DNA from: a virus
Virus record (IMG/VR): IMGVR_UViG_3300045591_000053
Span: 1 to 32,352 of that record
Reading direction: 5' to 3' (one strand)
DNA: 32,352 nt
The notes under the pieces are model-generated. The model ran no database searches and was not told the origin of the DNA. It saw only the letters and a list, made by a program, of their open reading frames with translations. Position 1 is the first letter of the stretch, and each line of letters begins with the position of its first letter. This document shows, piece by piece, positions 3,052 to 23,556 of the stretch. A program made the translations under genes and the position numbers.

Positions 3052-4770
3052 CTAACCCCCTATCATTGATTGGTATTCGTCCGCCATGTCCTTTAGGACA
3101 ACGAACGCATCACACTCAGCCGCCCAAGCGTCAATTCGGTTGCGCGGGTCTTGGTTCTTCTTGTCAGGCGCAATGTTGCCGTTGGCGTCACTACGTACAG
3201 CCACGTTCGAGCGGCACCATTCCGCAATAGGGTTCGCGTTATCGACAATCTTGTTTTCGCGGTAAAGCGCTCTAAGTTCCTTCATGGGCATTGATAGGGT
3301 CTGTGCGCCCTGAACAACGCGCCTGAAGTAGTCGGCACCGAAATAGCCTTCGTATGCTTCGACGGTCGGAACGTCTCGCATGTGCCACGGGTCATAGCCG
3401 CACGCGGCGGCATATATGCCGTACTTGTCCTGAATCTCTTGAACCCATTCGAGGACAACGCGCTTGTCGATGATTGGCGTTGCGCACGTGCGTAGGTAGC
3501 CGTTCGCAATCCAAGCATCGTAGGGCACGCCGTCACGCCCGCCGCGCCGTCCCTCGCGCTCGGCTTGCTCCAACGCGCGTTCCGGTATCCATGCCATGTG
3601 CATTGCATAGATGTTTTCGTCGTTCGGGCGCTTCATCAACATGCACGCCGCCGTTAGGTCGGTCGTGTCGGATGCGTCCACGCCAAGGATTCCGTACTTG
3701 AAGCCGTCCGCCGGGTCGAACGTGGCCGCGTTGTGAATCTCAGACCACGTTAGCCAAGCTTGGCTTTGGTTCTCAATCAAGTTGAAGTCTTTCACAAGCA
3801 GCGTCGGCAAGAAGGTAGGATCGTTCTTTGCCTTTGCAACGTTCTTCTTCAGCGCCGCTAGAGACTTGATTTTCCCTAAGCCGGGGTTGGCTTTGTACCA
3901 AGCCGCTTCATTTTCCCATTCCTCCCGTTCGTCCAGCTCGTACACAAACGCAATGAAGTGCTCTGCATCGACGCCGGTTGCCTTGCCGTCCAGCCAATTT
4001 GCCGCGTATTTGTATTGCGCGTCAAAGATGCCCGCACGGACAAAGCCGTTGGTTGTGATCTCCAGAACCAGCGGTTGGCGTCGCGCCGATGTGCCTTGAA
4101 TGGTCAGGTCGTACAAGTCGCGGTTGCGCATCGCGCCCAGCTCGTCAATGATTGCGCCCGACACGTCCAAGCCGTCTAGGTGGTTGGTGTTAGCCGCAAG
4201 GGCGCGAATGACGCCCATGTTCAAATCACAGTACAAATCAGCAACGCACTTCCGCACGTGCTTTGCCAGCGCCGGTGAAGTCTTGACCATTCGCAAGGCG
4301 TTGTTGAATCCCTTTGCCGCTTGGTCATGGGCGGTTGCCACGTTGTAGATTTCCGGTGCGCCCTCGTCATCGTTTACCAGCAAATCAAGCTCGATTGCAG
4401 ACGCAAGCGCCGTCTTGCCGTTCTTCCTTCCCATGATCCACAGCACTTCACGGTATTGCCGCAAGCCCTCGGCATCAACGAACCCGAAAATCACTGAAAG
4501 AATGGCAAGTTGGAATAGCTCTAGGTTGAAGGCGTGCCCAAGCTTGCCGGAAGGAAGCCGGCAAAATCGTTCGATGAAGCCGACGTGCTTCTCTGCGTAT
4601 TCCTCGCGGAAGTGATACGGATAAAGCGGGTCTTTGTTATCCATGTCGCGCAAGACGATTTCGGCAACCTGCTTCATCTTGCGGCAAGCCGTGATTGAGC
4701 CGTCTTTGATACCGCCGAAATAAGACCTTATGGCACGTTCGCAACGCCCAGCCTTGCGCGGCTTAGTCAT
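3052..4770 (-). CDS. terL: Terminase large subunit
   Basis: 572 aa. Walker A-like WIMGRKNGKTAL and Walker B-like GAIIDELG, with a C-terminal nuclease-like region. Overlaps TerS by 8 nt. Confidence 0.9.
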   Translation of the reverse strand: MTKPRKAGRCERAIRSYFGGIKDGSITACRKMKQVAEIVLRDMDNKDPLYPYHFREEYAEKHVGFIERFCRLPSGKLGHAFNLELFQLAILSVIFGFVDAEGLRQYREVLWIMGRKNGKTALASAIELDLLVNDDEGAPEIYNVATAHDQAAKGFNNALRMVKTSPALAKHVRKCVADLYCDLNMGVIRALAANTNHLDGLDVSGAIIDELGAMRNRDLYDLTIQGTSARRQPLVLEITTNGFVRAGIFDAQYKYAANWLDGKATGVDAEHFIAFVYELDEREEWENEAAWYKANPGLGKIKSLAALKKNVAKAKNDPTFLPTLLVKDFNLIENQSQAWLTWSEIHNAATFDPADGFKYGILGVDASDTTDLTAACMLMKRPNDENIYAMHMAWIPERALEQAEREGRRGGRDGVPYDAWIANGYLRTCATPIIDKRVVLEWVQEIQDKYGIYAAACGYDPWHMRDVPTVEAYEGYFGADYFRRVVQGAQTLSMPMKELRALYRENKIVDNANPIAEWCRSNVAVRSDANGNIAPDKKNQDPRNRIDAWAAECDAFVVLKDMADEYQSMIGG

Positions 4771-5188
4771 ACCGCGTTTCTGCTAGGTATTCCGTCAGGG
4801 CATCAGCAGCGCTTGCGCCCGCTGGCATTAGATCGCAAAGCTGCTTTATGCCCCTTTGAAACGTAGTGAATAGCTTGTTATAGGCGACAAAGCCCGGATG
4901 CTCGCGCAATCCCGTTTGCCCTCCGCCGTTGTCGTACTCGCAAACGATGTGCTCATTCATCAGCTCTTTGCGGGCTTCGTCCAGCTTCACTTTCATAAAT
5001 GCCAGATTCGGCAACATGCTAAGCACAACGTTGCGCTTCTCGTCCGGTATGGCGTCTTTCGTTATGCGCTGAAGCTTGCGCAACTCCGAATCGACGCGTG
5101 CTTGCGTGGCGGGCGGCTTGCACTTTTTTGAACTTGTGTCGATTTTTGCCGAAACTTGCGAACTATCGCACACTTTCTTTGATTTCAC
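4763..5188 (-). CDS. terS: Terminase small subunit (P27-like)
   Basis: 141 aa, directly upstream of and overlapping terL, and downstream of an HNH gene. This is the canonical HNH-TerS-TerL arrangement of cos-type phages. Confidence 0.7.
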   Translation of the reverse strand: MKSKKVCDSSQVSAKIDTSSKKCKPPATQARVDSELRKLQRITKDAIPDEKRNVVLSMLPNLAFMKVKLDEARKELMNEHIVCEYDNGGGQTGLREHPGFVAYNKLFTTFQRGIKQLCDLMPAGASAADALTEYLAETRYD

Positions 5189-8077: not shown

Positions 8078-9304
8078 TCATCCCGACACACTTTCAGCGC
8101 TTGCCATCGCATCGTTGACGGCTTTTTCAAACACCGTCGCTGCGTACTCGTCGCGCCCCGGCAACACGTGCGCATAGATTCGCAACGTGGTTGCCACGTC
8201 CCTATGCCCCAAGCGCTCGGAAACGGTTTGAATGTCAACGCCATGCGTAAGTAGCCATGTCGCGTGCGTATGCCTTAGATCGTGGAACGTGAAGCCCTTC
8301 GGCATGGCGGTGTTCATGGCAAGGCGCTTGAATGCCTTTGAAATGGCTGTCGGTCTGCAATAGCCGCCGTCGAACGTCACAAGTGGCGCGTCTTGCGGAA
8401 GCTCGCCACAGAACGACGTTCTAAGCCTTATGAAGCCGTCTATCGTCTCAATGTCCGACTTGCTAAGGCTGACCGGTCTTGACCTGCGCCCCTTCGTAAC
8501 GTCGCGCCTATACGGCTTCTTGCCCGTCTCTTCAATCACGGTGCCGCCGACAAGGATTTGCGGCTTCTTGTTCTCTTGCTTCTCCTTGGAATAGTCGCGG
8601 TTGCGCACGGCGCACACCTCGCCGCAACGCATCCCGGTTGCAAGCGCCATCCAAGCGGCAAACGCGTTCATTGCATTTCTGTACGTGTGCGCGTCTATAA
8701 TGGAAGGTTTAAGCAATGCTTTAAGCTGTGCTTCAATCGCCCTGAAATCACCTATGTTCAGCGCTTGCGCTTCATGGTGAACAAGTTTCGGCTTATCGAC
8801 GCTTAGCAGCGGGTTTGAATCGCAAACCTTCATCCTCACAAAGAAGGTGAATGCGGCGTTAAGGAAGTCATGCACGCCGCGAACGCTGTTTTGCGACAAG
8901 CCTTGCCCGCCGGCGTCCTTCGGCGTGAGCAACCTTTGCTCAAAGCGCGATAGATCAAAGCTGCTTACGTCGCGGGCGTTGACGCTCGGAAGGTACTTGG
9001 CAACCTTGGCAACGTATCTTGTAAACCTTTTGTAGGCACGCACGCTGTTTGGCGAATAGCCGTTACGTGAACGCATGTCTATGAACCCGTTAAGCAGGTC
9101 AACAAGCAAGGCGCTATCGAGAAGACCGTTGGCGGTTAGGTCAGACTTCCACGCTTCCGCAAGCTTGATTGCTTGTTCTTCCGTCTCGGCTGTCGGAAGG
9201 TCGCGTTGCTTCTCGACCTTCCTTCCGTCATCGGTTCGCCCGATGAACAGACGCGCAACCCAGACGCCGCGCCTTGCGTCCCACTTGACCTTAACGCCAG
9301 CCAT
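8078..9304 (-). CDS. int: Tyrosine recombinase / phage integrase family protein
   Basis: C-terminal catalytic box FHDLRHTHATWLL...LGHRDVATTLRIYAHV, with an upstream ...ATGMRCGEVCAV (Arg box). The N-terminus MAGVKVKWDARRGVWVARLFIG looks like an arm-binding domain. Start chosen at 9304; the track ORF extends to 9352. Confidence 0.85.
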   Translation of the reverse strand: MAGVKVKWDARRGVWVARLFIGRTDDGRKVEKQRDLPTAETEEQAIKLAEAWKSDLTANGLLDSALLVDLLNGFIDMRSRNGYSPNSVRAYKRFTRYVAKVAKYLPSVNARDVSSFDLSRFEQRLLTPKDAGGQGLSQNSVRGVHDFLNAAFTFFVRMKVCDSNPLLSVDKPKLVHHEAQALNIGDFRAIEAQLKALLKPSIIDAHTYRNAMNAFAAWMALATGMRCGEVCAVRNRDYSKEKQENKKPQILVGGTVIEETGKKPYRRDVTKGRRSRPVSLSKSDIETIDGFIRLRTSFCGELPQDAPLVTFDGGYCRPTAISKAFKRLAMNTAMPKGFTFHDLRHTHATWLLTHGVDIQTVSERLGHRDVATTLRIYAHVLPGRDEYAATVFEKAVNDAMASAESVSG

Positions 9305-9473
9305 TTTTAACAGCCTTCCCGATTGCGTATGCCGTAACAAGGCACGAAACAAGGCACGTCAGCACATAGGCAAGCAGCCCGAACCAAACGCCGTTGAAGA
9401 TGCCGACGCCGATTCCAACGCCGATAGGAACTGCCGCAAAAAGCAGCACGATTGCCAAGCACCCACGGTTCAT
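9291..9473 (-). CDS. Small membrane protein (2 predicted TM helices)
   Basis: 60 aa, hydrophobic (CLAIVLLFAAVPIGVGIGVGIF...FGLLAYVLTCLVSCLV). Overlaps both neighbours. Confidence 0.5.
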   Translation of the reverse strand: MNRGCLAIVLLFAAVPIGVGIGVGIFNGVWFGLLAYVLTCLVSCLVTAYAIGKAVKNGWR

Positions 9474-15598: not shown

Positions 15599-17146
15599 AT
15601 GAGTAAGAACCGCGCGGCTATATACGCCCGCTTCTCGTCGCACAACCAGCGCTCGGAATCAATCGAAATCCAAGTTGAAAACTCAACCGCCTATTGCAAG
15701 GAAAATGGGCTTGAGGTCGTGCGCACCTATGCGGATTATGCCAAGACCGGGCGCAACGCTGATCGTGCCGAATTTCAACGCATGATGGCAGATGCCCGAA
15801 CGGGCTTGTTTGATTATGTGGTCATCTACAAGATAACCCGAATCATGCGCAACCGCGATGAAATGGCGCTCGCACGTATCATGCTGCGAAAGGCGGGCGT
15901 TGAAATCCTCTATGCAGGTGAGGAAATCGCCGACGGTTCCAGCGGCGTCCTTCAACTCGGAATGTTGGAAGTGCTCGCCGAATACGAAAGCGCCATTGAT
16001 AGCGAACGCATCAGGGACGGCATAAAGAAGAACGCTGAAAGGTGCATGGCGAACGGGCGCACGCTCTACGGGTGGGACATTGTAGACGGCTATTACCAAG
16101 TCAACGAACGTGAAGCCTATTGGCTGCGCAAGATGAAGAACATGTTGCTTAGCGGGTCAACCATGGCTGAAGTCGTGCGCGGCGTCTCTGCCATGCGCAC
16201 GCGCAACGGCAAGCAGCTGAATCAGGACACGGCTACAAAGCTTCTCCGTAGGGTTCAGAACGGCGGCACATACTCTTATGCGGGCGTTGTCGTTGATGGC
16301 GGAATGCCGGCGTTCTGGTCAAAGACCGAACAAGACATGATCATATCCATTCTGAAGCGCCGCCATAAGCCGCATAGGCGTATAGACAGTTCGCAAGAAT
16401 GGCCGCTGACCGGCAAGCTTTGGTGCGCTTGCTGCGATGCCACGTTGTCGGGAACCAGCGGAACAAGCGCCACGGGCAAGACATACGCCTATTACAAGTG
16501 CAACAAGTGCGGGCGTACCTTCAGGCGCGACATTTTGGAAGATGCCATTGTCGATGTGGTCTGCCAAGCGGTGAAGCAGCCCGAAATTAGAGAAAACATC
16601 GCCTACGGAATGGCGCAATATGAAGCGTCGCAAGAAGACGATACGCCGCTTGAAAGCGAAAGGATAAAAGGGGAAATTCGGCGCATAGACAACGCCTTTG
16701 AAAGAATCTGGCAAGCCATAGAAGACGGCATAGCGCCGCCGGGTGGCAAAGAAAGGGTTGAGGAATTGCGCGAACGCAAGACTGACCTTGAAACCCAGTA
16801 CCAGATAGCGAAAGCCAACGAATCGGCTAAACCTAGCTACGATGATCTAATGCGTTGGCTTGACGAAATGGCGGAACATCTGACGCCACAAGAAATTTTG
16901 AAGATGTTCATTCGCGCCGCCGAAATCGACGGTGACGTTATAAGGCTGTTTTTTGCCTTCGATTACTACGGCGATGATTTCACACCGCCAAAGCATAGAC
17001 ACGAACTAGCCCAGAAACGGGCTAGTTCGTGTATTTCTCCTATGGTGGAGCCTAAGCGAAATAGCGCGAACGCTTACACGATAACGCTAAAGTGCGGCTA
17101 TTTGCAGGTGAACCGTAACTGGTTCGTGATTGTGCGCGATATATAA
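15599..17146 (+). CDS. Large serine recombinase (serine integrase)
   Basis: N-terminal resolvase domain AAIYARFSSHNQRSESIEIQ. Recombinase domain. Zinc ribbon CACCDATLSG...YYKCNKCGRTF. Coiled-coil region. 515 aa. Confidence 0.9.
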   Translation: MSKNRAAIYARFSSHNQRSESIEIQVENSTAYCKENGLEVVRTYADYAKTGRNADRAEFQRMMADARTGLFDYVVIYKITRIMRNRDEMALARIMLRKAGVEILYAGEEIADGSSGVLQLGMLEVLAEYESAIDSERIRDGIKKNAERCMANGRTLYGWDIVDGYYQVNEREAYWLRKMKNMLLSGSTMAEVVRGVSAMRTRNGKQLNQDTATKLLRRVQNGGTYSYAGVVVDGGMPAFWSKTEQDMIISILKRRHKPHRRIDSSQEWPLTGKLWCACCDATLSGTSGTSATGKTYAYYKCNKCGRTFRRDILEDAIVDVVCQAVKQPEIRENIAYGMAQYEASQEDDTPLESERIKGEIRRIDNAFERIWQAIEDGIAPPGGKERVEELRERKTDLETQYQIAKANESAKPSYDDLMRWLDEMAEHLTPQEILKMFIRAAEIDGDVIRLFFAFDYYGDDFTPPKHRHELAQKRASSCISPMVEPKRNSANAYTITLKCGYLQVNRNWFVIVRDI

Positions 17147-19224: not shown

Positions 19225-19573
19225 TCTGGTACTCCTTTTCATTAGCTGCGTGCGCGTCAATGAGTTCTTGCCAAAGGTGGGTTCCAACGTCGTTTCCGCC
19301 AAGCCCTGCATAGACTTCATGCACGCTGTTTGCCTGTTCCTTAATATCAAGCGGCACCGGTTTGCCGCCCTGCATGTACTCTTCGTGTAGCTTGAAAAGC
19401 TCTGCACGCATGAGCACTTGCATACCTTTGAGCAAAAGCGCGGGCTCTTCCTTGTATCGGTCATCGAACACGCGTGCCTTCTCGCGCTGTGCGCGAATGG
19501 TCGCGCTTAGTGCCCCTACAACGGCGGTCATAACGATGCTGAATACCGATAGGAATATGTCTGCGATTGTCAC
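19217..19573 (-). CDS. Lysis-cassette membrane protein (one N-terminal TM helix; function unknown)
   Basis: MTIADIFLSVFSIVMTAVVGALSA followed by a soluble helical domain. Overlaps the holin start. Confidence 0.5.
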   Translation of the reverse strand: MTIADIFLSVFSIVMTAVVGALSATIRAQREKARVFDDRYKEEPALLLKGMQVLMRAELFKLHEEYMQGGKPVPLDIKEQANSVHEVYAGLGGNDVGTHLWQELIDAHAANEKEYQND

Positions 19574-19575
19574 GG

Positions 19576-20022
19576 TTAGCCTTCTGTCACTTCACGCCAA
19601 ACGCTTCCGGTGCCGGTTGCGCCCGGTTCCCAAACGTTGTTAGCAACGATTGACTCCCAAACCTTCCCGTTGTGCTTGACGCGTGCACCCTGCGAGTAAG
19701 GGTTCGTTGAATCTGGCTGAACCCATTCGGGAATCTCGCCCGTCGGCGTGTCGGCGGTTCCGGCGGAAAGCGTCTTAGCCCAAAGGCTCACAGCCGCCGA
19801 TGGTGACCAATCAGCTTGTGAAGTGTGCGCCTGAAGGCACGTGTAAAGCGTCCCTTCGTATGAAACGCGCTCGCCCTCTGCGTAGGCGTGTGCGTCGCCC
19901 GTCCATGCCGGATAGATGGCGGGCGCGATTTCTGCCAAGTCATCTGAAAACGCGGATGCCTGCATCTTGTAGATCGCGAGAATGCCGCGCAACGCCGCTT
20001 CTTCCTCTTCTGTGAATGCCAT
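19576..20022 (-). CDS. Carbohydrate-binding protein with two CBM5/12-like repeats
   Basis: WTGDAHAYAEGERVSYEGTLYTCLQAHTSQADWSPSAAVSLW, and YSQGARVKHNGKVWESIVANNVWEPG...W. Confidence 0.6.
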   Translation of the reverse strand: MAFTEEEEAALRGILAIYKMQASAFSDDLAEIAPAIYPAWTGDAHAYAEGERVSYEGTLYTCLQAHTSQADWSPSAAVSLWAKTLSAGTADTPTGEIPEWVQPDSTNPYSQGARVKHNGKVWESIVANNVWEPGATGTGSVWREVTEG

Positions 20023-20042
20023 GTTTGCCCCTCACAATAAGA

Positions 20043-20062
20043 AAGCCCGCATGTGCGGGCTT
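20043..20062 (-). terminator. Hairpin at the 3' end of the DGR reverse transcriptase gene
   Basis: 8-bp stem AAGCCCGC/GCGGGCTT with a 4-nt loop. On the minus strand it is followed by TCTTATTGTG. Confidence 0.5.
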
Positions 20063-20090
20063 GTGGCTTCTAATTGATGTGTGTTTGCGG

Positions 20091-21116
20091 TCAGCCGAAA
20101 AGCTGCGAAAACAACGCGTCCATGCTCTTAACCGTCCTGTGCGCGTCTAGCTTCTTCAGCTTGCGCCGCTCGCGCGTCACGGCGGCGCGACAAGGGCGCA
20201 CAATGACTTTGCCAGTTTCGCCATACTCAAACCTCTTCTTCAGATAGGTAAAGCCGTGCGATAGCTTCACTATGTGCGTCTTCTTCTCGTTGACGATGAT
20301 TCCCAGCTTTTCGCACTCTCGCCGAATATCCGCCATGACGGCGTGAAGGTCTGACTTGTGAAGCGCGATGCAATAAAGGTCATCCATGTAACGCCCGCTC
20401 GCGAGAACGCAAGGCGTGCGCAACAACATGTGGTCGATAGGGCTTGGCAACGCGACTGCTAATACTTGGTTCGGTTCGCTGCCAAGCCCAAGACCACGTG
20501 AGCCGTGGGAATCAATCTGATCATAGACAAGCGCCTTCACGCGCGAATCGTCAAGGCACCTATCGACAAGGCGCTTTGCCGCGTCGTGGTCGATGTTTCC
20601 AAAGTAGTTAGAGAAGTCAACAAGCAGTATGTAGCCTTCCCGCCCGTGCTTCTGGTAGTGCCTTGCAAGCTGCCGTTTGAGACGCTTTAGCGCGTATTCG
20701 GTGCCGCGTCCCTTGATGTTCGCCGAACAACCGGCGGTGACCGTCGGAATTATCGCCGGGACAAGCGCGTAACGGTTCATCGCCTTGTGTATGACGCGCT
20801 CGGAAAAGCGAACCGACGTGATGTGCCGCATCTTCCCACGCTCGCAAATGTCGAACTCAAAGAATCCGCGCCGAATGTCCTTGCCTGAAAGCAGGTCATC
20901 ACGCGCCCTGCGAACGTTCGTTAGGCACCGCGCCATGTATCGTTGAACGGATGCCTTCCAGCCAACGCCGCCGCTGCAAGCGTGGGCGCACTTGTAAAGG
21001 TGGTCAACGTCCGTAATCTGTTCAAGCGTGCATTGTTCTATGCGCTTTGCCTTGTTCGCGGCTCTCTTTGCATCGCGGCGGGCACGTCTCGCCGCCCGCC
21101 GCTCTTCTGATTTCAT
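20091..21116 (-). CDS. DGR reverse transcriptase
   Basis: RT motifs ILLVDFSNYFGNIDH and RYMDDLYCIA (YxDD). LGSEPNQ occupies the position of the DGR-typical (I/L)GxxxSQ motif. Start chosen at MKSEERRAARR (21116); the track ORF extends to 21203. Confidence 0.9.
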   Translation of the reverse strand: MKSEERRAARRARRDAKRAANKAKRIEQCTLEQITDVDHLYKCAHACSGGVGWKASVQRYMARCLTNVRRARDDLLSGKDIRRGFFEFDICERGKMRHITSVRFSERVIHKAMNRYALVPAIIPTVTAGCSANIKGRGTEYALKRLKRQLARHYQKHGREGYILLVDFSNYFGNIDHDAAKRLVDRCLDDSRVKALVYDQIDSHGSRGLGLGSEPNQVLAVALPSPIDHMLLRTPCVLASGRYMDDLYCIALHKSDLHAVMADIRRECEKLGIIVNEKKTHIVKLSHGFTYLKKRFEYGETGKVIVRPCRAAVTRERRKLKKLDAHRTVKSMDALFSQLFG

Positions 21117-21320
21117 AGGCACCCCGCACGGCTTCCAATCGGCATTCCATAGCCGCTTAGGCACCAGCAATGAAACGCAAGCGAACGCCGAAACCTGCGC
21201 CATGCAAGCAGCGGTCTGCGGTGCCCACGGGGTGCGTATTTACGGCGCAAGCGCCGAACGTTGCATCTTCCTTCCTTGTGCGCACGGATTGCGGACGTAT
21301 CCGCAATGACTGGCATTGCA

Positions 21321-21449
21321 AAGGAATCACGGGCGCGGGCGTATCCACTCATTCGTCGGCACGTTGTTGTTGGCATTGCCGTTGTTGTTGACATAGCACG
21401 CGTTAGACGCGGAACCACCAGCCACCGAACGGAGCCACCAATTGGCACG
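21321..21449 (-). repeat. DGR template repeat (TR), 129 bp
   Basis: Aligns without gaps to 21958..22086. In the VR frame it encodes RANWWLRSVAGGSASNACYVNNNGNANNNVPTNEWIRPRP*FL, with 11 AAC/AAT Asn codons. Confidence 0.95.
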
Positions 21450-21476
21450 CGATACAAGATGCAACGCCTTTCCATT

Positions 21477-21884
21477 CTACCGCGCGCCAAGCAGCTTCAC
21501 ACCCTTTCGAGCGCCCCTAATCAGCTTGATTTCGTTCTCTAGGTCATCCGCCAAGCGCTCGCACCTGCTCACCTTCACAACTCCAAGGTCTGCAAGACAT
21601 TGAAGGTCTTGCAAAAGCAGCTCGCAAGCGGCAACGGCAAGCGTCAGATAGTGCCTTCGATACGTGATGTTGTGCTCGGTGTTCGGATAGAACGCGTCAG
21701 CGGTCACAATGTCGCCCACTATCTCACGCGCCGCCTGCGCCATGGGAACAGCGAGAATGAACCGGTATGACTTAGGCATTGCGGCGGACGTCACAAGCGC
21801 CGTTATCTCGGTGCGGATTCGTAGCGCGGTGTTGAAATACTCATATCCGCTGATGTTCCGGTAGCGTGCCAATACGGTACTCAA
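21477..21884 (-). CDS. avd: DGR accessory variability determinant (Avd-like four-helix-bundle protein)
   Basis: 135 aa, helical. Lies between the target gene and the TR and ends 27 nt before the TR, as in the Bordetella phage BPP-1 DGR. Confidence 0.75.
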   Translation of the reverse strand: MSTVLARYRNISGYEYFNTALRIRTEITALVTSAAMPKSYRFILAVPMAQAAREIVGDIVTADAFYPNTEHNITYRRHYLTLAVAACELLLQDLQCLADLGVVKVSRCERLADDLENEIKLIRGARKGVKLLGAR

Positions 21885-21906
21885 TGCAAGCCTTCCTTGT
21901 TAATGC

Positions 21907-21924
21907 GCCCGCCTTTCGGCGGGC
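21907..21924 (-). promoter_or_regulatory. GC-rich hairpin with a GAAA tetraloop about 33 nt downstream of the VR. Candidate DGR target-recognition cruciform.
   Basis: The minus strand reads GCCCGCC-GAAA-GGCGGGC, a 7-bp stem. No U-tract follows. Confidence 0.5.
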
Positions 21925-21948
21925 ACCGCCAAGCGATTAGCACGGCTC

Positions 21949-22851
21949 TTAGCCTATAAGGAAGCACGGGCGCGGGCGCACCCACTCACCCGTCGGCACG
22001 TAGCCGTCGGCAATGCCGGCGCTGTCGACATAGCACGCGTGAGACGCGGAACCACCAGCCACCGAACGGAGCCACCAATCGGCACGGTCGCCATTCAGGC
22101 GCTTTGCCGTGCTGTCAAAGATGGGAAAGTGGCAGTCGAACCCGACGGAATAGCCCTTGGTTCCCCAAACGCACTGACCATAGACTTCTGTTTCCGAAAG
22201 TGACCAAACCTTGCCTAGATCCTGCCAACTCCAACCAGCGGATTCGGTAAGCTTCGTGCTAGACGAATAGCGCTCTTCGAGCAGTACGCGTTGCGTCATA
22301 AGCACGTTGCGCAAGGCTGAAGGAAGCGCCGGCAAGAAGTCGTTGATCTCCCAGTCGTGCAGCTTTGAAACAAGATATGGGTTCTTCACGTCGGCGGTTC
22401 CGTTGTTGTCGTTGGTGTCTCGCCAATGGATATAGCTGTTGTTCACGGCTTTAGCGCCTTGCACGGCAACTGTTGCCCTCGGAACAAAGGCGATATGATG
22501 CCCTTTCGGCTGGTCGCCGCACTGATAATACGGGTCAATCGCCGCGATTTGATAGCGCACCGTCTGCGCCGGAACGTTGGTAGTGGCGGAAACGGGTACG
22601 TCCATGTAATCCCCGATGCGCAAGCCGGTGAAGTTGCCCGCCTTTGCGCGTGATTGCAGCCACGCATAGACGTTGGACGTTCCAATCTCGCCCGCGAACG
22701 CATCGGCAAGCGAACGTCCGCCGTATGTCCCCGCGATCACTTGCCGGTCGTATTCCTCGGCTGCTGTAACCGCCGCCGCCGTGGCTCTTGCCGCCGTGTC
22801 CTTCAGGTCATACGCCGTGCCGTTGATTGAAAGCTTTGAAAGGTCAGCCAT
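21949..22851 (-). CDS. DGR target protein: tail fibre / receptor-binding protein with a C-terminal C-type-lectin-like (DUF1566-like) variable domain
   Basis: 300 aa, immediately downstream of the BppU-like gene. The C-terminus ...RADWWLRSVAGGSASHACYVDSAGIADGYVPTGEWVRPRPCFLIG is encoded by the VR. Confidence 0.85.
   Translation of the reverse strand: MADLSKLSINGTAYDLKDTAARATAAAVTAAEEYDRQVIAGTYGGRSLADAFAGEIGTSNVYAWLQSRAKAGNFTGLRIGDYMDVPVSATTNVPAQTVRYQIAAIDPYYQCGDQPKGHHIAFVPRATVAVQGAKAVNNSYIHWRDTNDNNGTADVKNPYLVSKLHDWEINDFLPALPSALRNVLMTQRVLLEERYSSSTKLTESAGWSWQDLGKVWSLSETEVYGQCVWGTKGYSVGFDCHFPIFDSTAKRLNGDRADWWLRSVAGGSASHACYVDSAGIADGYVPTGEWVRPRPCFLIG
21958..22086 (-). repeat. DGR variable repeat (VR), 129 bp, codons 256-298 of the target gene
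   Basis: Differs from the TR at 16 positions. All are A in the TR coding strand (T on the plus strand as given). Confidence 0.95.
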
Positions 22852-22860
22852 GATACCCCC

Positions 22861-23556
22861 TTATTTGAGCGTTGCCGTCTCGCCGCTCATGCTCGCCTTC
22901 GTGAGCGTGAGCGTTTCGCCCGCAATGCCGGTCATGCGGTTTGCGGGCGCGAATGCGGTTTCGTCTATTACTACGTACTTGTCCTGAAGCTCTGCTAATG
23001 CCGTCGCGAGAACGGCGTTTGACTGCTTTAGCGCCACCACCGAATCGCCGGAAGCCGGCATCGATGCCGCAAGGCTGTTGGCGTTGGTGATTGCCGTCTC
23101 GACGCGTTGGGCGGCGTTGTTCGCCGCGTTTACGGCGGCGCTTCCACGGTTGATTAGGCTGTCTATTGCATCGTCATAGCTTTGCGCGGGTTTCTGTCCG
23201 GCGGTAGCGCTCCTTAGAATCTCGATTGCGAAACGCTCGGTCGAATAGCGCGTGTTGCCCTTCTCGAACGTGAAATAGGCTTCGTCTGTGTATCCGGCAA
23301 TCTGGCAAAGCTTGCTTTCGTCCACGGTTACCGTGGCGGCGTTGCCGGACACGGTAGCCGCCGCGCGGTAGTAGCTCGCTCGGTCTGGCAGAAGCACTTC
23401 AAGGTATGCCATGAAGCCCGACAACGTGACCTCGCCGCCGCCATCGTAGACAAGCGCCTTGATGGTCGTTCCGCCCTTGTCGCCCTGACCGACGCGCAAA
23501 AGGTTTGTGCCCAAGCCTTCCTTGCTTAGGTCAAGCTCTATCGTCTGCGTGTTCAC
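22861..23556 (-). CDS. Baseplate upper protein-like (BppU N-terminal domain) tail fibre anchor
   Basis: MNTQTIELDLSKEG...LRVGQGDKGGTTIKALVYDGG matches my memory of the BppU_N pattern, followed by an Ala/Asn-rich coiled coil. Lies between Tal and the receptor-binding protein. Confidence 0.55.
   Translation of the reverse strand: MNTQTIELDLSKEGLGTNLLRVGQGDKGGTTIKALVYDGGGEVTLSGFMAYLEVLLPDRASYYRAAATVSGNAATVTVDESKLCQIAGYTDEAYFTFEKGNTRYSTERFAIEILRSATAGQKPAQSYDDAIDSLINRGSAAVNAANNAAQRVETAITNANSLAASMPASGDSVVALKQSNAVLATALAELQDKYVVIDETAFAPANRMTGIAGETLTLTKASMSGETATLK

Follow-up and report, generated by a model that had tools for sequence, protein, structure and literature searches.

One question raised by the viral record IMGVR_UViG_3300045591_000053 is whether a cluster of genes at positions 20,091 to 22,851 of its 32,352 nucleotides (positions 1 to 32,352 of the record, the whole stretch analysed, hereafter called the window) represents a diversity-generating retroelement (DGR) that alters the host recognition of the phage, and whether this particular copy is still able to do so. 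The original prediction, made from the DNA letters, described a complete DGR consisting of four co-oriented minus-strand elements, namely a tail-fibre-like target gene, an avd-like gene, a template repeat (TR) and a reverse transcriptase (RT), in the order known from the Bordetella phage BPP-1. All four elements were found where they had been placed, and the order target-avd-TR-RT was confirmed by the open reading frames and the repeat pair (Table 1). With high confidence, we regard the element as a genuine DGR of a temperate Coriobacteriia phage of approximately 32 kb, which diversifies a tail receptor-binding protein and of which the copy in the window is probably crippled.

Template repeat and variable region

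The evidence that carries this view is the comparison of TR with the variable region (VR) of the target gene. Both form a single ungapped repeat of 129 nt with 88% identity, and neither a second VR nor any other copy of the 129-nt repeat was found within the window. The TR coding strand contains 26 adenines, and every one of the 16 mismatches between TR and VR coincides with one of them (hypergeometric P = 5e-14). Codon positions 1 or 2 are affected in 14 cases, and each of the ten AAY codons in TR is recoded in VR. The arrangement is likewise that of a DGR, with VR lying within the 3' end of the coding target gene and the non-coding TR adjoining the RT gene, 205 nt upstream of its start. The same pattern extends to the relatives, since a TR/VR pair, mostly of 126–130 nt and with mismatches almost only at A, is present at 31 of the 32 related loci whose upstream sequence was long enough. 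When the substitutions of 25 distinct pairs from these relatives were pooled, 318 were located at A versus 6 at other bases.

The direction of the transfer can be read from the prophage of Olsenella sp. Marseille-P4559. Its TR differs from that of the window at nine positions, seven of which are non-adenines, and at these seven positions each VR follows its own TR; hence, sequence must have been transferred from TR to VR after the two lineages split. A shorter time scale is covered by two siblings from other metagenomes, L057/L063 (ERZ28640641) and L069 (ERZ14222128), which share 99.5–99.7% identity with the window across 7–8 kb. Compared to the window, 18 of the 25 substitutions in L057 (99.5% identical over about 7 kb) and 14 of the 29 in L069 are located in the 129-nt VR, all of them at TR-A sites (binomial P = 1e-25 and P = 7e-18, respectively), and only 7–15 substitutions are distributed over the remaining 7–8 kb. 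L057 and L069 differ from each other at 11 VR positions, again exclusively at TR-A sites, and TR is 98–100% conserved among the sibling phages while VR varies. The original prediction had proposed to compare related genomes for adenine-linked VR variation, and precisely this variation separates the near-identical siblings from the window. Collectively, these alignments show, at the level of sequence, an information flow from TR to VR with adenine-specific substitution as well as a diversification that was very recent in the lineage of the window. A scan of viral and metagenome contigs with the degenerate VR pattern returned relatives and no extra member of this lineage.

Some further observations concern details of the repeat. 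At positions 21364 and 21370 the TR of the window contains A, but the siblings L057 and L069 contain G, which changes AAC to AGC in two codons, and their VRs also carry G. Hence, the set of mutable adenines drifts between sibling phages. Another difference was found close to the 3' end of the repeat, where TR reads ...UGAUUCC (window 21327) and VR reads ...UGCUUCC (window 21964) in all clades, even in relatives that are 42% identical. The A to C exchange at TR position 123 (TGA to TGC) was initially considered as a mutagenesis product and was dropped; because the base is C in every clade, it probably represents a fixed TR/VR difference of the IMH*/IMH type (initiation of mutagenic homing), which also removes the in-frame stop codon. 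Finally, the Logan contigs L058, L059 and L060 are identical to the window and end 37 nt into VR, at window position 22050. These ends were rejected as a sign of VR heterogeneity and are attributed to a repeat-induced unitig break, because a 38-nt stretch identical in TR and VR begins there, which is longer than k = 31.

The reverse transcriptase and its thumb deletion

The RT casts doubt on the completeness that had been ascribed to the element, because all four parts are present but the enzyme lacks 28 thumb residues that are kept in 119 of 120 homologs. It comprises 341 residues versus about 369 in the homologs, and the difference goes back to a single clean in-frame loss of 84 nt between two GAAGCT hexamers, removing the 28 residues that read LAAFVRRGEMTREQALQSYQSWRGSMLK in the nearest relative. 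The lost segment is near-invariant at G, T, Q and SYQSWRG (...GEMTxEQxxQSYQSWRG...) and aligns with residues 285–309 of bRT, the BPP-1 enzyme (ANFIKHGEDESLQRFLASWSGHAQW), which are part of the thumb. The bRT thumb is in contact with the template:primer duplex, and its base is encircled by a 'Thumb Ring' of the spacer (Sp) RNA (bioRxiv 10.1101/2023.10.23.563531). The window copy therefore does not encode an RT with an intact thumb, a finding that touches the activity of this copy and not the kind of element.

The deletion allele is present in four further assemblies (L061, L064, L065 and L068), one from JGI and three from Logan, which were obtained from different runs with different assemblers and are all 100% identical to the window. 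We regard the deletion as real because the same junction occurs in the JGI and the three Logan assemblies, and as recent because the near-identical phages L001 (98.7% identical), L063 (99.7%), L066 (99.6%) and L069 retain the 84 nt and have the full-length RT allele. Among the assemblies with the deletion, L068 covers VR and carries the VR of the window, and the other three end short of it. The exact target protein of the window, VR included, is encoded on five JGI contigs, of which the one that was fetched, again L068, has the deletion allele. Hence, one VR is known for the deletion allele itself, and the full-length siblings with covered VR (L057/L063 and L069) possess VRs that differ from it. 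The look-up of a 131-aa Avd variant gave no further VR of the deletion allele, and the searches via P0285 and P0246 ended in other lineages (L070) or in a pair of identical contigs (L071 = L072). From these sequence comparisons it appears probable that RT function is lost or severely impaired in the window copy and that its VR is frozen.

Alternatively, the same DGR might still be fully active, if the 28-residue thumb deletion were tolerated and the shared VR simply came from one clonal population that had been sampled. We consider this rather unlikely, although several observations are in line with it. The reading frame is preserved, and fingers, catalytic palm, YMDD and LGSEPNQ are unaffected by the deletion. 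Moreover, the accession numbers of the assemblies with the deletion allele lie next to each other and their sequences agree at 100%, so that they may not be independent; as they may originate from one study or population, their identical VR is weak, suggestive evidence for a frozen VR. Full activity is, however, difficult to reconcile with the conservation of the lost segment, which is kept even in relatives at 42% identity with its core SY(Q/A)SWRG and has its counterpart ASWSGH in bRT, and with the contacts that the bRT thumb makes to the duplex and the Sp RNA.

We regard it as very unlikely that the 84-nt deletion arose as an artefact during assembly or sequencing and that the RT of the real phage is intact. 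The junction lies at the short direct repeat GAAGCT, which makes a mis-assembly conceivable, but a microhomology of six bases is far below any assembler k-mer, and the junction recurs identically in the different runs and assemblers without any other difference from the window.

With regard to the class of the enzyme, the predicted assignment to the DGR RTs held. Its best solved relative is BPP-1 bRT (8ub7, E 7e-10), and group II intron RTs in the PDB follow at about 3e-3. The models of other RT classes stay far below their cutoffs, with 54 bits versus 300 for the group II intron model NCBIfam TIGR04416 and 14–28 bits versus 200–550 for the NCBIfam retron, Drt and AbiA models, and PADLOC returned generic RT-domain matches only (<=61.5 bits compared to 189 bits for the phage DGR-type PHROG). 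An Rfam search across positions 19500–23500 found no group II intron or retron RNA, the only match being the RNA motif RT-2. The view that the locus is no DGR at all, but contains the RT of a group II intron, retron, Abi or DRT system beside a TR that is a decayed duplicate of the target 3' end, could only draw on the generic RT-domain matches and is refuted by the adenine-specific, TR-to-VR-directed variation, because decay would neither place 318 of 324 substitutions on the adenines of one strand nor hold TR constant while VR varies among siblings.

The reading frame of the RT is open from position 21203. The start at 21116 is nevertheless regarded as correct, because MKSEERR is also the N-terminus of 83 of 120 homologs and is preceded by structured RNA. 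Both RT motifs named in the original prediction, YMDD and LGSEPNQ, are present, but the N in place of S is no peculiarity of this element, because 119 of 120 homologs have NQ in motif 4 and it must be regarded as a signature of the whole clade. NQ also occurs in relatives at 42–51% identity, which carry RT-2 too. The glutamine of this motif, Q187 in bRT, contacts the incoming dNTP (bioRxiv 10.1101/2023.10.23.563531), and the window RT retains the equivalent Q as well as the aliphatic residue of motif 4. The strict 'SQ' consensus of DGR RTs (aliphatic-G-xxx-S-Q; QGxxxSP in other RTs) is unmatched in the whole NQ clade, which performs adenine-specific mutagenesis; the serine beside the glutamine is therefore dispensable there.

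Target protein, Avd and RNA signals

The target gene adjoins a BppU-like gene as predicted, since Pfam identified BppU_N in the gene directly upstream, which belongs to the neighbourhood and lies outside the DGR proper. The target protein consists of N-terminal strands and a coiled-coil helix, followed by a C-terminal DUF6273 domain (PF19789) at residues 143–293 (44.6 bits versus a cutoff of 23.5, E 1.9e-11), and VR represents the C-terminal end of this domain. It is probably a baseplate-attached receptor-binding protein. The homolog P0180 from a Coriobacteriaceae metagenome-assembled genome (510 aa, 71% identical to the window target) is a natural fusion of BppU_N and DUF6273 and therefore supports the attachment of the target to the baseplate. 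The predicted role as a diversified tail receptor-binding protein can be maintained, but the target is a DUF6273 protein, and the alignment of its family profile with Mtd by hhalign revealed no detectable homology (probability 0.15%). A search of the target sequence against the PDB gave no match. For DUF6273, C-type-lectin-like AlphaFold models have been published (PMC11792537, PMC10743442). A Foldseek search with the low-confidence model of the window target yielded a single lead, the protein 9qa6 (E 0.08), in which DUF6273 forms the N-terminal domain.

The Avd-like nature of the 135-aa helical protein was verified mainly by its structure model. AlphaFold2 (AF2) predicts a four-helix bundle with a predicted local distance difference test score (pLDDT) of 87, which was matched by Foldseek to the 23S-IVS/Avd-type bundles 2gsc and 2rld (E 3e-4) and which superimposes on BPP-1 Avd (4dwl) with a target-normalised template modelling (TM) score of 0.81 and a root-mean-square deviation of 2.7 A. 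Furthermore, the protein matches PHROG 3206, 'Avd protein of DGR' (E 2.7e-8). It is thus assigned as an Avd-type four-helix bundle encoded between target and TR, where a small basic protein of this fold is expected in a DGR; the structure model is decisive here.

The region between TR and RT is occupied by the RNA motif RT-2, which matches over the whole model (positions 1–222 of 222 in cmscan), and the Shine-Dalgarno sequence of the RT gene sits in the 3' strand of its outer helix. RT-2 was found in the same TR–RT slot at all ten related loci (L003, L005, L008, L009, L011, L015, L016, L027, L028 and L033). In BPP-1, the equivalent slot is taken by the Sp RNA, which matches a different Rfam family (RF03022, Phage_DGR, also RT-10), so that RT-2 is its positional equivalent. 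In this regard, a conserved single-stranded block in RT-2, AAGGAAGGAAG at 21277..21267 on the minus strand (about Sp 44–54), contains AAGGAA, which is complementary to UUCCUU at the 3' end of TR (21321–21326). This candidate pairing is located at a similar distance as the duplex between TR 117–129 and Sp 47–56 in BPP-1. It covaries in the L028 clade (UUCCA with UGGAA) and does not in the L009 clade. By analogy to BPP-1, we infer that the RT-2 spacer may act in priming.

Signals for the target site are present at the 3' end of VR, although their function is predicted. They comprise a GC-rich 12-mer within VR, which by analogy to the IMH of BPP-1 is a candidate for the homing boundary, and a downstream GC-rich hairpin, which lies about 33 nt past the VR end. 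Its stem is maintained through compensatory changes in the L003/L005, L009 and L028 clades, and its GAAA loop makes it a candidate for a target-recognition hairpin similar to that of BPP-1, where GCGGGGCC-GAAA-GGCCCCGC follows VR. The loop is shared, but the hairpin of BPP-1 lies only a few nt from the end of homology. A further small hairpin, GGCU-AAG-AGCC, was observed at the stop codon of the target gene (21944–21954, minus strand) and also displays compensatory changes across clades.

If the parts act as in BPP-1, the RT and the four-helix bundle of Avd would form a complex that binds a transcript spanning avd, TR and the RT-2 spacer RNA. The spacer would fold back on the 3' end of TR and prime cDNA synthesis, during which the RT would copy TR faithfully save at adenines. 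With the GC-rich 3' homology and the downstream hairpin as guides, the 3'-terminal VR of the target gene would then be exchanged for the mutagenised cDNA. As a result, ten AAY codons would be recoded in the part of the baseplate-attached receptor-binding protein that represents the C-terminal DUF6273 domain.

Besides the in-frame nature of the deletion with its intact palm and the possibly shared origin of the assemblies that carry it, several points weigh against this overall interpretation. The evidence for activity comes from a comparison between assembled genomes, and the biochemical steps are extrapolated from BPP-1. Avd showed no significant sequence match to BPP-1 Avd in hhalign and no sequence match in the PDB by phmmer and profile searches, and the NCBIfam Avd model scored 13 bits, below its threshold of 80. 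The AF2 model of the target has a mean pLDDT of 66 with values <50 across much of the C-terminal domain, so that only the N-terminal part is confident, and the C-terminal part is too poor to confirm a C-type-lectin fold in the target.

The features of the locus are compiled in Table 1. The four elements of the original parts list stand, but the list had missed the RT-2 spacer RNA, the hairpin after VR and a terminator-like hairpin after the RT gene.

Table 1. Positions of the DGR parts and the adjoining baseplate gene in the window.
Feature	Position	Strand	Evidence
BppU_N baseplate upper protein, 231 aa	22861..23556	-	Pfam BppU_N, E 1.2e-6; PHROG 3639, minor tail protein
DGR target gene, 300 aa, ATG start, GGGGG Shine-Dalgarno	21949..22851	-	Open reading frame and Pfam DUF6273
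Variable region (VR), target codons 256–298 of 300	21958..22086	-	129-nt repeat of TR
GC-rich 3' segment of VR, 12-mer CGCCCGCGCCCG (candidate boundary)	21967..21978	-	Identical TR copy at 21341..21330
GC hairpin 3' of VR, GUGCCCGCC-GAAA-GGCGGGCGC, 9 bp (candidate)	21905..21926	-	Compensatory changes across clades
Avd-type accessory protein, 135 aa, TTG start, strong Shine-Dalgarno AAGGAAGG	21477..21884	-	PHROG and AF2/Foldseek
Template repeat (TR), non-coding, in-frame TGA where VR has TGC	21321..21449	-	Repeat alignment
TR–RT spacer RNA, Rfam RF03077 RT-2	21099..21318	-	cmscan, 90.8 bits versus gathering score 40
DGR reverse transcriptase, 341 aa, internally deleted allele	20091..21116	-	Pfam RVT_1; PHROG 1423, E 3e-55
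LGSEPNQ motif of RT	20486..20466	-	Aligns with bRT IGSLTSQ
YMDD motif of RT	20390..20379	-	Sequence
Junction of the 84-nt in-frame deletion in RT, GAAGCT microhomology	20149..20154	-	DNA alignment with L001 and L002; BLAST breakpoints
Terminator-like hairpin 3' of RT, AAGCCCGC-ACAT-GCGGGCTT, then T-rich tail	20043..20062	-	Sequence

Phage context, known systems and implications

The window comprises the entire genome of a temperate siphovirus-type phage of approximately 32 kb, which encodes portal, TerL, dUTPase, SSB, repressor, serine recombinase, holin, two lysins and a tail module. Its host group is the Coriobacteriia, namely relatives of Olsenella and Collinsella from the gut. The RT has homologs in the thousands, the closest named ones come from Olsenella and Collinsella, and all of the ten reference-genome matches belong to Coriobacteriia except one metagenome-assembled genome binned as Oscillibacter. 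A blastn search with the DGR cassette gave no match in the INPHARED phage collection, and literature searches found no paper specifically on DGRs in Coriobacteriia.

Two other regions of the phage deserve mention. Between the RT and holin genes (19576–20022, minus strand), the window encodes a 148-aa protein with two CBM_5_12 carbohydrate-binding modules, and the position of this gene is kept in all close relatives; its product might serve as another binder of the host surface or have a link to lysis. Downstream of the lysis module, a 515-aa serine recombinase is encoded on the plus strand (15599–17146), whose place is taken by a 370-aa tyrosine integrase in the sibling L063 (99.7% identical; 3808–4920 of that contig). 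Hence, the integration module has been swapped between near-identical phages. A protein of the Phage_integrase family is additionally encoded in the window at 9352..8078.

The closest relative in a cultured genome is the above-mentioned prophage of Olsenella sp. Marseille-P4559 (LR027573.1, at about 1.05–1.07 Mb; L002). Its synteny is identical, with genes for TMP, Dit, Prophage_tail, a 145-aa protein, BppU_N, the DUF6273 target and Avd, followed by TR, RT, CBM_5_12, holin and lysins. The RT of this prophage is 83% identical and has the full length of 369 aa, and its TR/VR pair contains 16 mismatches at A. In the gene calls of this prophage, TR has been annotated as a 45-aa gene with a DUF6273 match (9653–9790 of L002).

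The comparison to the prototype BPP-1 (mtd-avd-TR-Sp-brt) revealed a common plan and many differences in the parts. Gene order and strand are the same, a tail protein gene carries VR at its 3' end, and both systems share the adenine-specific TR/VR differences, the Avd-type four-helix bundle and bRT as best structure match. The TR has a length of 129 nt compared to 134 nt in BPP-1. Beyond the different spacer RNA family and hairpin distance, the window has a DUF6273 protein instead of Mtd, an Avd that is unrecognisable from BPP-1 Avd by sequence, and an RT with LGSEPNQ instead of IGSLTSQ in motif 4 that is devoid of the residues equivalent to bRT 285–309. Unlike that of BPP-1, the host is a Gram-positive actinobacterium. 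Closer parallels exist with the DGRs of gut Faecalibacterium prophages and 'tentaclin' phages, which also have DUF6273 targets with VR at the C-terminal end of the domain (PMC11792537, PMC10743442). As in the window, these are temperate gut phages with the DUF6273 target adjoining tail genes. The window differs by its other host phylum (Coriobacteriia) and by its small 300-aa target after BppU_N, and the confident C-type-lectin model was not reproduced here.

As a DGR, the element adds little to present knowledge, because phage DGRs acting on tail receptor-binding proteins are textbook examples and DUF6273 targets in gut phages have already been published. Of some value are rather the RNA and the enzyme of its clade, which is characterized by the NQ motif, the RT-2 RNA and the DUF6273 target and is abundant in public data. 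The paper that defined the RT motif RNAs tied only RT-10 to a DGR, that of BPP-1, and speculated on the others (Weinberg et al. 2017, PMC5737381). The hitherto orphan Rfam motif RT-2 can now be assigned a concrete role, namely that of the spacer RNA between TR and RT in a DGR clade that is widespread among Coriobacteriia and related gut phages, by which the concept of the Sp RNA is extended from BPP-1 to a second, unrelated RNA family. Moreover, the 'SQ' of the DGR RT signature is unnecessary for adenine-specific mutagenesis, given the 318 of 324 substitutions at adenines in the NQ clade.

Furthermore, near-identical phages with and without the RT thumb segment represent a natural pair for probing the function of the thumb and its SWxG motif in mutagenic retrohoming. 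We give roughly even chances to the wider proposal that the thumb deletion acts as a natural off-switch, which freezes the receptor-binding protein, and that RT-2 provides the scaffold for priming in a large DGR clade of the 'NQ-type'. If this is true, the window and its full-length siblings (99.5–99.7% identical) would constitute a near-isogenic pair of phages with the DGR switched off and on.

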